A stretch of 64,000 bases of DNA, taken from positions 26,840 to 90,839 of the forward strand of contig JAINCQ010000020.1 in NCBI GenBank assembly GCA_036574205.1, in the 5' to 3' direction. Of this stretch, positions 29,903 through 33,538 are shown in pieces. Below the pieces are notes generated by a model, which saw only the letters and a list, made by a program, of their open reading frames with translations, was not told the DNA's origin and did no database searches. The DNA is from Elusimicrobiota bacterium (lineage in GTDB: Bacteria > Elusimicrobiota > Elusimicrobia > Elusimicrobiales > UBA9959). The position numbers and the translations under genes are program-made. How positions within the stretch are numbered: the first letter of the stretch is position 1; each line of letters starts with the position of its first letter.

Positions 29903-30663
29903 TATTCTTTTATAAGTTTATCAAGTAATTCTGAAGGTATATCAAAATTAGAAAAAACATTTTTTACATCATCATGATTTTCAAGCTCATCCATCATAGT
30001 AACTATCTTTTCTGCCAGCTCAGCATCTGAAACTTTAACCTCATTTTTAGGTATCATTGTGGCTTCCGCAGAAGAAACATTTATTTTTCTTTCAATAAGT
30101 TTATTTTTAATTTCTTCAACCTTATCAGGAGAAACAAAAATTTCATAAAACTCAGTATCCGGTTCATTTTTAATATCTTCCGCTCCTACATCTAATGCTA
30201 TATTAAAAAGATCATCTTCAGAAATAGAATTTTTAGGAACTGTTATATATCCTCTTCTTTCAAAAATCCAGCTAACACAACCAGTAGTTCCCATATTTCC
30301 GCCATGTCGTTCAAGTATAACTCTGAGTTCATTAAAAGTCCTATTTTTATTATCAGTTGTTGCATCAATCATTACAGCAATACCAGCTGGTCCATAACCT
30401 TCATAAGTTATTTCTTCATAAACGGCTCCTGGTATCTGTCCAGTTCCTCTCATTATTGCTCTTTTAACATTATCAAGCGGCATATTTACTTCTTTCGCGT
30501 CATCAATAGCCTTTCTCAATCTTGGATTTTTGTCTGGGTCTCCACCACCCATTTTTGCAGCAACTGTTATTTCCTTTATTAATTTTGTATAAATTTTGCC
30601 TTTTTTTGCATCATTTGCAGCTTTCTTATGTTTAATTCCAGCCCAATGCGAATGTCCACCCAT
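29902..30663 (-). CDS. yebC: YebC/PmpR family protein
   Basis: MGGHSHWAGIKHKK, YEGYGPAG, TDNKNRT. Confidence 0.96.
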   Translation of the reverse strand: MGGHSHWAGIKHKKAANDAKKGKIYTKLIKEITVAAKMGGGDPDKNPRLRKAIDDAKEVNMPLDNVKRAIMRGTGQIPGAVYEEITYEGYGPAGIAVMIDATTDNKNRTFNELRVILERHGGNMGTTGCVSWIFERRGYITVPKNSISEDDLFNIALDVGAEDIKNEPDTEFYEIFVSPDKVEEIKNKLIERKINVSSAEATMIPKNEVKVSDAELAEKIVTMMDELENHDDVKNVFSNFDIPSELLDKLIKE

Positions 30664-30752
30664 AACTGTTCCTCCTTAATTTATCGCAATATCTTACTAT
30701 ACAGACTAATATTTATTTTATAAAATATAATCTTATTTTACAAACTGTCCGT

Positions 30753-30825
30753 GCCCCCTTAGCTCAAAGGATAGAGCAGCTGCCTTCGAAGCAGTCGGTT
30801 AGAGGTTCGAGTCCTCTAGGGGGCA
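30753..30825 (+). tRNA. tRNA-Arg (anticodon TCG), CCA not encoded
   Basis: GCCCCCT/AGGGGGC acceptor stem, D-loop with GGA (A20), anticodon stem GCTGC/GCAGT around loop CTTCGAA (TCG 30786-30788), T-arm AGAGG-TTCGAGT-CCTCT. Confidence 0.95.
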
Positions 30826-30838
30826 TGCTGGTACTGAC

Positions 30839-31190
30839 CAACAGCGGTAAGCTGTTGCGCGAGGTGAGAACAGCCTTTAGAGCAAAACCTAAACGGTTTT
30901 GCGTGCTGTTCGCAAGGCCGCAGTTTGCCTTGGGCTATGCAGGCAAACGAGGCGGGGTCGCGCAAGCCGTCAGGGCTATGCGTGACAGAACAGCCTTTAG
31001 AGCAAAACCTAAACGGTTTTGCGTGCTGTTCGCAAGGCCGCAGTTTGCCTTGGGCTATGCAGGCAAACGAGGCGGGGTCGCGCAAAGCCCACCAGGCTTA
31101 TGCGTGACTCGAAAGCCCGCAGGCAAACTTGGGCATACAGTTTGCCGAGGGGGAAGGGTTTGAGAAAAATTTTGCAGTGAGCAAAATTTA
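30839..31190. repeat. GC-rich structured repeat array immediately 3' of tRNA-Arg (two 120-bp units plus degenerate flanking hairpins)
   Basis: 30867-30965 is identical to 30987-31085; each unit folds into three hairpins; hand count gives 69/120 GC in one unit. Confidence 0.9.
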
Positions 31191-31220
31191 TTTGTAGAAA
31201 AGTTCCTTTTAAATATTAAA

Positions 31221-31378
31221 ATCCCTTCCCCCTTGATGGGGGAAGGTGAGGATGAGGGTGAAATAATTAAATCTCCTTGCTGATGCTTATGTTTCCTCTC
31301 ACTTGATAGGAGAAGAATAAGGTGAGGGTGAAAAATAAAATCTCCTCACCCTAACCCTCTCCAAAAAAGGAGAGGGAA
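31221..31378. repeat. Three boxC-like purine/pyrimidine-biased palindromic elements
   Basis: CCTTCCCCC-TTGAT-GGGGGAAGG+TGAGGATGAGGGTG (31224-31260); degenerate copy 31293-31333; inverted copy CCTCACCCTAACCCTCTCC-AAAAAA-GGAGAGGG (31344-31376). Confidence 0.75.
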
Positions 31379-31513
31379 TATAACAATTAAACCGTCCCGG
31401 AAGGTAATACTCAAAAGTCTGCAGCAAAATATTTAATACAACAAACCCCATTTTTTTGAATTGCTCATATATTAATGCCTCATAAAACAAGATGTTTTGT
31501 ATAATATTTTAAT

Positions 31514-33538
31514 ATGAAAAATATTTTAGTATTCTTAATCATAGTCTTCCATTATTCTTTTTTAACTGCAGTTGAAGATTTAAACAAAATATATGAGGGA
31601 GCTGTAAATTCTTGGAAACACGGCAGGGTATCAGATGCAATTGGCGGATTTGAATATATTGTTTATAATTCAACAGATGATGATATAACACTCAAGGCAG
31701 GAAGGGAACTGGTAACGCTTTTAAATGAAACGAATGAAAACTCTCTTGCTATCGCATATATAGATAAATTAAAAGCTATTTCCAAAAATGATCCATATCT
31801 TGAATTTGAAAAGGGGATTGCTCTTTATTCCTTAAATAAATATAAACAGGCTGAGGAATCTTTTGATAACATTTTTACTATGACATCAGATGAAGATCTG
31901 ATATTTTTTTCAAGATTTATAAAATCAATGCTTGAAATGGATTTAAGTGGTTATGAAAAAGCATTGGATGAACTTCAGACTGTTTATAAAAGATATCCTG
32001 CGCTTCTTGCGCCGTCAACATATATGGTTTCTTATCTATATAAAAAACTTGGGAAAAAAATGCCAGCTTTAAATTTCTTGAAAGACTCCTTAAAATACGA
32101 TTCTCAAAACATTCAGGCTTTAATAGATTTAGCGCAAATCTATGATGATGCATCTTACTACTTACCTGCCTGGCAGTCATATTTCACATTAAAACAATTA
32201 GACTATACAAATCCATATTTTGAAAAAAAATCTAATAAGCTTATAAAAAAACTTGGGAAAAAACCTGATGAAATATTTTACTGGTCAAGGCTTGGCTGGC
32301 CGGTGCATAACGAACCGCTTAAAAACACAAAAAAACTAACACCATTAAAAATAGGATTATACTGCGATAATTTAAAAAATCTTTCTTACCTTGATTCATT
32401 TTATTTTATATCCAACTCAGATTTTGAAATCTATGATAGTGTTTTAGGTAAAACATTTTCAGGTAAAAAAAATATGCAATATAAAGTTGAGTATATAAAG
32501 TCCAACAGGATATATGAACTTAAAGATAACTCAAATTCAAAACTATACTCCACACGTGTTAATTTTGAAATAAGACTTAAAGATCCAAATGGGGTTATCC
32601 TTATCAAAAACCCATCTATTCTAAAAGATTTCTTTGGGGTTAACAGAAGCGATAAAGAGGTCTCTAATAAGATAGAGATTATCGTTTCAACAACTGGAAT
32701 GAAATTAATAAATCATACTTATTTAGAACATATACTCCCATCAATTGTCTCTTCTATAAAAGGACCAAAAGAAACATATGAGGTTATAAAAGCGCTTACA
32801 ATACTTGTAAGAACAAAATTAACTAAGGATATAACGGAGAAAAAAACATATATACCTGACAATGATGATTTATTTGAATTTAAAGGTTTACAATATGAAA
32901 AAGAACAATATGTATCTGCCATGAATGAGACAGCTGATAGTATTTTGATAGATAAAAATTCATCTATTTACAATGTTTTTTACTCCATAAACGCAGCAGG
33001 AATGACATACTCAAATGTAAATGATAATTCATCAAAACCAGAATATATTACGCCATTTTCACTTTTTAAATGGTTAGCATTTGATTTCTTAAAAAAACCA
33101 GCATACTCTCTTCCCATAGATCAAACCCAGCTTTCTGAAGCTATATGGCTTTTGGTTCTTGAACCAAAATGGATTGAAGATAGGATAAATGAAAAGTATA
33201 AAGTTGGTAAGATAAAAAACATAATAGTTTTAAAAAGAGATGATTTTGGTATAGTAAAATCTATTAAAATAGAAGGGACAGCCGCTGATATTGAAATAAA
33301 TGGAGAAAAGGAGATATCGAGATTTATTTCAGGGGGGGTATTAAGGTCAAATCTTTTTTTTATAAGACCAATTATGAAAGGCAATTTTCCACGCTTTTTT
33401 ATTGTAAGAGGTGCAGGAACAGGTAATTTTAAAGGAATGTGTATATATGGCGCAAATTACCTTGCCAAAAATATGGGCTATAAATATAATCAAATAATAA
33501 GACACTACTTCCCGGATGCAGTATTAAAGGAAAAATGA
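31514..33538 (+). CDS. Exported TPR + degenerate SpoIID/LytB-domain protein
   Basis: Signal peptide, TPR-like helices to ~aa 240, then a SpoIID-like region (EVIKALTILVRT, LRSNLF, YNQIIRHYFP). Confidence 0.75.
   Translation: MKNILVFLIIVFHYSFLTAVEDLNKIYEGAVNSWKHGRVSDAIGGFEYIVYNSTDDDITLKAGRELVTLLNETNENSLAIAYIDKLKAISKNDPYLEFEKGIALYSLNKYKQAEESFDNIFTMTSDEDLIFFSRFIKSMLEMDLSGYEKALDELQTVYKRYPALLAPSTYMVSYLYKKLGKKMPALNFLKDSLKYDSQNIQALIDLAQIYDDASYYLPAWQSYFTLKQLDYTNPYFEKKSNKLIKKLGKKPDEIFYWSRLGWPVHNEPLKNTKKLTPLKIGLYCDNLKNLSYLDSFYFISNSDFEIYDSVLGKTFSGKKNMQYKVEYIKSNRIYELKDNSNSKLYSTRVNFEIRLKDPNGVILIKNPSILKDFFGVNRSDKEVSNKIEIIVSTTGMKLINHTYLEHILPSIVSSIKGPKETYEVIKALTILVRTKLTKDITEKKTYIPDNDDLFEFKGLQYEKEQYVSAMNETADSILIDKNSSIYNVFYSINAAGMTYSNVNDNSSKPEYITPFSLFKWLAFDFLKKPAYSLPIDQTQLSEAIWLLVLEPKWIEDRINEKYKVGKIKNIIVLKRDDFGIVKSIKIEGTAADIEINGEKEISRFISGGVLRSNLFFIRPIMKGNFPRFFIVRGAGTGNFKGMCIYGANYLAKNMGYKYNQIIRHYFPDAVLKEK

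Follow-up and report, generated by a model that had tools for sequence, protein, structure and literature searches.

What is the GC-rich, hairpin-forming array that directly follows a tRNA gene in an otherwise AT-rich bacterial genome? The question is raised by a stretch of 64,000 nucleotides (nt) from an Elusimicrobiota bacterium (GenBank assembly GCA_036574205.1, contig JAINCQ010000020.1, positions 26,840 to 90,839 of the forward strand), which as a whole is called the window here, and in which a repeat array begins immediately past tRNA-Arg(UCG). An earlier sequence-only reading of this DNA had described a GC-rich array in a region of about 0.3 GC and a unit spaced at 120 nt with 99 identical nt, and both observations were reproduced: GC in 100-nt windows is 0.52-0.61 over 30750-31149, compared with 0.23-0.40 in most flanking windows, and 30867-30965 is 100% identical to 30987-31085 over 99 nt, with a start-to-start spacing of 120 nt. 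In the present study, we propose that the array is one locus of a lineage-restricted, modular family of tRNA trailers resembling the RtT RNA of Escherichia coli, in other words, a set of co-transcribed trailer RNA modules spread and homogenised by recombination; the probability of this reading is put at roughly 0.6. The genome-wide spread of RtT-like trailers is the novel aspect, and no published description of this family was found in the literature on tRNA-downstream, partial tRNA and Elusimicrobia repeats, tRNA trailers and rtT.

Modules and their placement in the genome

The window's genome (G000) is a draft of 1.85 Mb in 43 contigs, with 31.4% GC and a completeness of 95%. Using BLAST and iterated nhmmer across this genome, three modules were delimited: P of about 38 nt, U of about 120 nt in zero to two copies, and T of about 95 nt, arranged as P-T or as P-U(1-2)-T. 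The nhmmer matches form 27 clusters. Among these, 22 lie directly 3' of a co-oriented tRNA gene, each beginning within a few bases of the tRNA 3' end, and the remaining 5 are cut by contig ends, where the sequences extend the arrays of tRNA-Glu(CUC), tRNA-Glu(UUC) and tRNA-Asn or start within U units. The family is thus carried by 22 of the 43 tRNA genes, always on the tRNA strand (the genome also has one transfer-messenger RNA, tmRNA), and none of the 27 clusters was observed away from tRNA arrays. Since the modules recur in 27 clusters, chance is excluded as an explanation. These searches, together with those in relatives described below, address a check suggested with the sequence-only reading, namely whether further copies lie 3' of tRNA genes.

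Immediately past the discriminator, the trailers begin with a U-GCU..CUAAG leader, which precedes a 7-bp hairpin. The stem of this P hairpin covaries; in alignment A1, its pairs 26:45, 27:44 and 29:42 show 9, 3 and 12 double-sided changes, respectively. Arrays reiterate the whole unit (tRNA copy, P and T), the final one often breaks off early, at points that vary, and the duplicated tRNA end may extend 5-60 nt past the discriminator, into a truncated second unit. True U units were seen in G000 alone. At the tRNA-Gly(CCC) locus (contig C31, 34660-34862; L011), two extra 3'-half copies of about 56 nt each, longer than the usual 17 nt, precede the first P-T unit. In the tRNA-Asn array on contig C30 (L087, 1-3008), a 2.8-kb islet begins exactly after the 17-nt copy of the tRNA-Asn 3' end, and a new P-U unit comes behind it; the islet codes for a 226-aa protein, to which no Pfam family could be assigned, and for a 523-aa Eco57I/N6 DNA methylase. 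As the islet sits within the array, arrays can bracket cargo.

Fold and covariation of the units

The T-unit alignment comprises 36 units, 29 from G000 and 7 from relatives, and describes a three-way junction made of a closing helix, a hairpin H2 with a conserved loop of 11-13 nt, and a long A/U-rich hairpin H3. The share of paired cells is 92.3% compared with 84.9% in column shuffles, and double-sided changes occur in 17 pairs compared with 9.6; neither value was reached in any of 500 shuffles, and pairing in slid controls did not exceed 52.9%. Pairing amounts to 88.1% in the closing helix (helix 1 of alignment A2), where 4 of 7 pairs have double-sided changes. G-U occurs at pair 62:95 in 24 and at pair 64:93 in 31 of the 36 units; these two pairs would be A-C on the opposite strand, and therefore the T fold is that of the tRNA-sense strand. 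Conservation across four genera extends to the unpaired loops and junctions, and an arm-swapped H2 in the T unit is one among the H2 covariants.

For the U units (n = 22), RNAalifold gives a consensus of three hairpins with double-sided changes in 9 of 36 pairs, H1 and H2 being covariant, in agreement with the three hairpins per unit seen by the sequence-only reading. The three flanking hairpins that it had listed correspond to the P hairpin (30839-30857), H2 of the T unit (31122-31146) and the top of H3 (31168-31189).

A copy of the local tRNA end and its complement

The closing helix of P-T units has a 3' strand that does not belong to the element proper but copies the adjacent tRNA, from nt 57 in the T loop to nt 73, the discriminator. 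Among the 29 T units of G000, 16 carry an exact 17-nt local copy, 2 a copy with one mismatch and 1 a copy with three, while 10 are degenerate, including the window's T unit. Of 47 copies from elsewhere, in seven other genomes and on one metagenome contig, 38 match exactly, including those in units behind tmRNA in two species. The copy junction falls invariably between C56 and R57. The statement of the sequence-only reading that there is no duplicated tRNA 3' end is therefore correct for the present locus, where the copy is degenerate, but not for the family, in which duplication is the rule. A T-arm mimic was considered as a further feature of the family and was rejected; the clamp and the copy can form a T-arm-like hairpin in some units, but not in those with a GCAACC clamp.

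The 5' strand of the closing helix, termed anti-T, is complementary to nt 57-64 of the local tRNA. Over 41 anchors, anti-T complements the local tRNA at 249 of 328 positions, compared with 198 ± 5.5 under permutation of the tRNAs (0 of 10000 permutations), and this observed score is lowered by 9 of the 41 rows, which are U-type or spurious anchors. The match tracks the variable positions 57, 59 and 63, as well as the T-loop difference between the tRNA-His genes of two congeners. Together with the GAA that follows it, anti-T has the potential to pair with as much as nt 54-64 of the real tRNA, and the predicted fold of tRNA-Ser with its P-T unit shows such alternative pairings between anti-T and the real tRNA. 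Two units contain a foreign copy, one of Leu(GAG) type at the Leu(CAA) locus and one of Asn type at a Gly locus, and therefore indicate transfer between loci. Because a model built on T units scores U units at 58-63 bits and a hidden Markov model of U matches P-T regions, U is read as a derivative of the T plan, in which a generic helix would take the place of the helix between tRNA copy and anti-T.

Comparison with known systems

The RtT repeats that follow tyrT in E. coli came to light decades ago and pose a question that is now 45 years old; to our knowledge, neither their function nor their origin is settled. In E. coli K-12, four RF00391 units (133-138 bits) lie behind tyrT and tyrV, each with a terminal copy of 19 nt of tRNA-Tyr, running from within the T loop to the 3' end, and in the Rfam consensus the RNA is closed by an internal segment that pairs with the tRNA copy. 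RtT RNA (RF00391, rttR, the 178-bp repeats of the tyrT-tyrV operon) and the present family share several features. First, both are tandemly reiterated trailers of tRNA genes on the tRNA strand. Second, their units end in a tRNA 3' copy that starts inside the T loop, a feature of the family as a whole and not of the degenerate copy in the window. Third, both are GC-rich and multi-branched, with a closing helix between an internal segment and the tRNA copy. The two differ in that the E. coli copy includes CCA and measures 19 nt, against 17 nt and no CCA here, and in the extra modules P and U of this family. Moreover, a single family occupies 22 of 43 tRNA genes here (and tmRNA in relatives), each with a matched copy and anti-T, whereas RtT is annotated solely at tyrT/tyrV in the E. 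coli stretch examined. A permissive Rfam scan of 30000-32500 (cmscan, E <= 10), one of the checks suggested with the sequence-only reading, gave the tRNA as its one match, with no RtT match, and thus nothing at the gathering threshold of 45 bits for RF00391, compared with 133-138 bits in the E. coli positive control. The architecture is shared and the match is absent, and the likeness to RtT is therefore architectural. The array had earlier been left without a known family, which holds with respect to Rfam but overlooks the architecture of RtT RNA, a candidate that had not been considered.

A different precedent is found in Methanopyrus kandleri, in which roughly every second tRNA gene has a palindromic motif some 10 bp past its 3' end, which was proposed as a signal for 3' maturation (PMC5217627). 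Like the present family, it is a lineage-specific structured motif directly behind about half of a thermophile's tRNA genes; unlike it, the motif is a single palindrome of two 5-nt arms 9 nt apart, described without tRNA copy, modules or tandem arrays.

Repetitive extragenic palindromes (REP), bacterial interspersed mosaic elements (BIME) and miniature inverted-repeat transposable elements (MITEs) are likewise short, non-coding, hairpin-rich, multi-copy and assembly-breaking. A REP/BIME element mobilised by a REP-associated tyrosine transposase (RAYT) was rejected, since the modules occur strictly in trailers at tRNA 3' ends, in one orientation, and show no link to Y1 (RAYT-like) genes: the Y1 family is present in 50 of 61 genomes of the bacterial family, yet it was not found in two genomes that carry the modules, G010 and G014. 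Y1 is the one protein family for which occurrence was compared between carriers and non-carriers. A MITE was rejected as well; the ends (U-GCU.. and ..UUUG-clamp) are not inverted repeats by reading, the duplication is at least 17 nt and variable, and no protein-coding relative was found. The two options formulated by the sequence-only reading, a structured RNA array co-transcribed with the tRNA or a tRNA-targeting REP/MITE-like element, are each correct in part: a structured, multi-copy array on the tRNA strand that is restricted to tRNA 3' flanks is retained, while the REP-like, RAYT-linked and classical MITE identities are not.

Distribution and turnover in relatives

The T covariance model was run on 61 genomes of the bacterial family, a sample of the relatives comprising 8 carriers and 53 non-carriers. 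The carriers belong to 4 of 13 genera, with 36 matches in G000, 31 in the congener G001, and 7, 5, 2, 4, 5 and 1 in the others. In G001, a co-oriented tRNA or tmRNA lies just upstream at 20 of 23 loci, one locus is cut by a contig end, and two are orphans that carry tRNA-3' fragments; 17 of 18 loci in five further genomes are likewise behind a co-oriented tRNA or tmRNA. A metagenome scan added three loci, two with a tRNA and one cut. The conserved 25-nt H3 motif was found at just 4 loci in the genome collection, in three metagenome-assembled genomes of Elusimicrobiales, and had no match in viral contigs.

No tRNA is called upstream of the two orphans of G001 (L052 and L056), which have the appearance of arrays separated from their tRNA; a T-arm-like stretch lies 100 nt upstream of one, which ends in a Ser-type tRNA copy, and the other lies behind a lone tRNA-3' fragment. 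The tmRNA genes of G001 (L044) and G002 (L077) are each followed by a P-T unit in which 17 nt of the tmRNA 3' end are copied exactly; in G001, CCA follows the distal copy, and the tmRNA of G000 has no unit. Longer T units of 140-165 nt were observed in relatives, at the tRNA-Gly(UCC) locus of G002 (L023/L065) and at L046, L047, L039 and L064 of G001; they contain extra GC-rich hairpins in the H2 or H3 loops, which are lineage-specific and unlike the U units of G000.

The occupied sites differ between the two congeners. Eight loci are filled in G001 and empty in G000, namely tmRNA, Val(UAC), Val(CAC), Thr(CGU), Arg(GCG), Arg(CCU), Pro(GGG) and one Met, and the empty counterparts have unrelated AT-rich trailers. 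Identity of the T cores is 0.78 and 0.75 within each congener; between them, it is 0.715 for the same tRNA and 0.718 for different tRNAs. As identity is higher within than between genomes, the copies have been homogenised or spread within genomes and not inherited locus by locus.

Proposed explanation

Herein, we propose that the P, U and T modules would be transcribed from the tRNA promoter, as part of the tRNA precursor. Co-transcription of the array with the tRNA is likely, because the array lies on the tRNA strand, no terminator-like site precedes it on the + strand, and its G-U pairs are strand-specific; the promoter-like site upstream of the tRNA (Table 1), with no separating terminator, is consistent with read-through from the tRNA promoter. 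A cut past the discriminator would release the tRNA. In this context, CCA is encoded at 2 of the 43 tRNA genes of G000, both without the element, and the genome has two PolyA_pol-family genes of the CCA-adding type. The same cut would leave behind a trailer RNA that is GC-rich and, for this reason, stable; a stable trailer of this kind has been reported in the case of E. coli rtT RNA. Unequal recombination between the repeats formed by the 17-nt copy and P may make arrays grow, shrink and become truncated, and ectopic gene conversion may copy arrays among tRNA loci and thereby homogenise them within the genome. Selection on the helix might maintain the fit of anti-T to the local tRNA, or else template switching between the inverted arms, a known mechanism whose action is presumed here, might do so. 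In our view, the likeliest roles of the trailers would be structural or in processing: protection of the 3' end, punctuation of the precursor, or insulation from downstream genes.

Several points weigh against this explanation. First, transcription and processing of the trailers are predictions, the one public run that contains the stretch being of DNA. Second, RNase Z was recovered in G000 only as a weak match, a 280-aa metallo-beta-lactamase protein at 88 bits against a cut-off of 293. Third, with no match to the RtT covariance model, the purely architectural likeness to RtT could be convergent. Fourth, the window's own locus lacks both hallmarks, the local copy and the matched anti-T. Finally, the first gain, at a naive tRNA locus, of a unit with an exact local copy and a matched anti-T is difficult to account for by recombination alone.

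Alternative explanations

This unexplained first arrival keeps alive an alternative that we consider unlikely, a trans-mobilised and possibly guide-using insertion element. In this scenario, a non-autonomous mobile element would target tRNA and tmRNA 3' ends; an enzyme supplied in trans would make cuts staggered by 17 bp (at C56/R57 on one strand and past N73 on the other) and insert P-T or P-U-T, nt 57-73 would represent the target-site duplication, and anti-T would act as a target-pairing guide, as in IS200/IS605, the bridge RNAs of IS110 or group II introns. Insertion precisely past the discriminator with a fixed 17-nt duplication at many tRNAs and tmRNA, the filled or empty state of orthologous sites in congeners, the tandem stacking of units at one site, the complementarity of anti-T to the local target, and the lack of a locus-wise vertical signal in the T cores are all consistent with such an element. 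However, terminal inverted repeats were not seen, and the duplication often runs 5-60 nt beyond N73 into a truncated second unit, which is easier to reconcile with tandem duplication than with a clean target-site duplication. The type of anti-T does not go with the H3 subfamily, so that the "guide" is not inherited with the element, and viral contigs gave no match. Nor was a candidate enzyme found. Searches of G000 returned two Xer-sized matches to Phage_integrase (300 and 314 aa), neither at an array, no reverse transcriptase (RVT_1), one Cas1, and three Y1_Tnp genes within sugar-metabolism clusters, one of them with an in-frame TGA, and Y1 does not track the carriers. No dedicated mobilising enzyme emerges from these searches, although at 95% completeness one could be missed.

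A second alternative, which we regard as improbable, is a tRNA-specific riboregulator. Here, anti-T would switch between its own tRNA (T loop and stem) and the decoy 3' end, and thereby gate the folding or 3' processing of the precursor, or else a released RNA would bind the cognate tRNA or a factor that binds tRNA ends. The matched antisense, the decoy and the predicted alternative pairings keep this idea alive: the fit of anti-T to the local tRNA extends to the variable positions 57, 59 and 63, its pairing together with GAA may reach as far as nt 54-64 of the real tRNA, the predicted tRNA-Ser fold shows such alternative pairings, unpaired loops and junctions are conserved in four genera, and E. 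coli RtT has the same plan. Nevertheless, the P-U-T units, including that of the window, lack a matched anti-T and often a decoy, and half of the tRNAs are without the element while the carrier tRNAs differ between congeners, which argues against an essential role.

It is very unlikely that the repeats are integrase scars, that is, attL/attR repeats left by phages, plasmids or islands that use tRNA genes as attachment sites. Sublocation classes of the att sites of integrative elements in tRNA genes were reportedly distinguished by Williams in 2002. Direct repeats of a tRNA or tmRNA 3' end that start in the T loop and bracket inserted DNA are the classic mark of prophages, integrative and conjugative elements and islands (PMC9897764). 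tmRNA is used by the present family too, and one array has the 2.8-kb methylase islet right past a tRNA-3' copy. Apart from this islet, however, the inserts are gene-less structured modules of 125-400 nt that are homologous at more than 20 different tRNAs, so that a single integrase would require more than 20 different attP sites. A combination of integrase and cargo between tRNA-3' repeats was not found in G000, where the two Xer-sized genes are the only candidates, and the viral contigs are again without a match.

An assembly artefact, in which the perfect 99-nt duplication would be a mis-assembled multi-copy repeat, is hardly credible even though no contig of the sole public run spans the repeat (there is a gap in the unique contigs from 30892 to 31350), the summed depth climbs from about 12 to 60-680 over it and many arrays lie at contig ends, because two-unit arrays with diverged units exist at four other loci (two on C1 and one each on C7 and C18), the two U units of the window differ in H3 with the same internal and terminal pattern as elsewhere, and the family is also present in seven other genomes and three metagenome contigs. 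That run, the only public one containing the stretch, consists of DNA contigs labelled as hot springs metagenome; it provides no contig across 30892-31350 to confirm the number of U units here, which is two in the assembly.

Implications

If the preferred reading of RtT-like trailers spread by recombination is taken further, RtT-type trailers might be a general class that has been expanded genome-wide in this lineage, giving each carrier tRNA gene a private structured RNA, antisense to its own T loop and with a decoy of its own 3' end; as a whole, we consider this extension doubtful. Such a class may be either an RNA device that gates or checks the folding and 3' processing of the cognate tRNA, or an RNA-guided element that targets tRNA ends without a classical transposase. 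If it exists, at least 20 matched loci per genome would make the RtT question testable. In any case, the RtT plan is found here on about half of the tRNA genes, plus tmRNA in relatives, with a copy and a complement fitted to the local tRNA. This fit, together with the turnover between sister species, provides dozens of natural replicates per genome, in which one may ask how modules arise (recombination, template switching or insertion activity) and whether the RNA acts on its tRNA. In practical terms, the arrays end many contigs of the assembly, yield partial tRNA copies that can confuse annotation, and once harbour an islet of the restriction-modification type.

The locus behind tRNA-Arg(UCG)

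The features of the locus, which is of the P-U-U-T type with one P hairpin, two U units and one T unit, are collected in Table 1. ARAGORN places the tRNA at 30752-30826, one nt wider on each side than Rfam. The 3' two thirds of U unit 1 are a T-like core by model R1 (62.9 bits). H2 of the T unit consists of an outer helix (31116-31118/31149-31151) and an inner helix (31122-31128/31140-31146), and the position of anti-T is occupied by the generic GUGAC end of U unit 2. The remnant at the end of the T unit has no match to tRNA-Arg(UCG), the best match to any tRNA having 9 mismatches in 17.

Table 1. Features of the array and its surroundings, with the Y1-like genes of the same genome. Positions are those of the window unless a contig is named.
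Feature	Position	Strand	Remarks
Promoter-like site	30698..30726	+	9/12 consensus positions, by consensus scan alone; candidate start of the tRNA-plus-trailer transcript
tRNA-Arg(UCG)	30753..30825	+	Rfam, 70.1 bits; discriminator A at 30825; CCA not encoded
P module	30826..30863	+	U-GCU..CU.A. leader, then 7-bp hairpin (30839-30857) with GGUAA loop; begins directly past the discriminator
U unit 1	30867..30986	+	120 nt, hairpins H1-H3; H3 of internal type
U unit 2	30987..31108	+	122 nt; first 99 nt as in unit 1; terminal-type H3, as before T units at other loci
T unit	31104..31199	+	GAAAG junction, H2, long A/U-rich H3 with GUGA-type loop; 96.1 bits, E 2.6e-22
Degenerate remnant	31200..31210	+	position of the 17-nt tRNA 3' copy in other T units
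Y1-transposase-like (IS200/RAYT-type) genes	G000 C7:33384-34088, C7:37048-37686, C36:32459-32905		

The 374 nt 3' of the tRNA fold at -168.2 kcal/mol on the + strand (z = -7.9, with none of 100 shuffles as good) and at -151.8 kcal/mol on the - strand (z = -8.0), the + strand being better by 16 kcal/mol. No intrinsic-terminator-like site, that is, a GC-rich hairpin with a U run, was found on the + strand between 30826 and 31500. The array is flanked by yebC-ruvC-ruvA on the - strand and, on the + strand, by a gene for a 674-aa protein and then a glycosyltransferase gene; there is no recombinase among these flanking genes. No Pfam family was assigned at E <= 0.001 to the 674-aa open reading frame (31514-33538, +), which comes directly after the repeats.

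A second, unrelated repeat family (E2) occupies 31211-31418, directly past the T unit, and forms palindromic CCUUCCCCC/GGGGGAAGG and CCCUCUCC/GGAGAGGG hairpins. In G000, E2 is present in 46 clusters (about 9.8 kb) in both orientations, 10 of them directly next to a T unit and 36 at sites with no adjoining T unit, and the summed contig depth over E2 reaches 680 compared with about 12 in the unique flanks. E2 behaves like REP/BIME, and the tRNA copy is degenerate where E2 abuts T.

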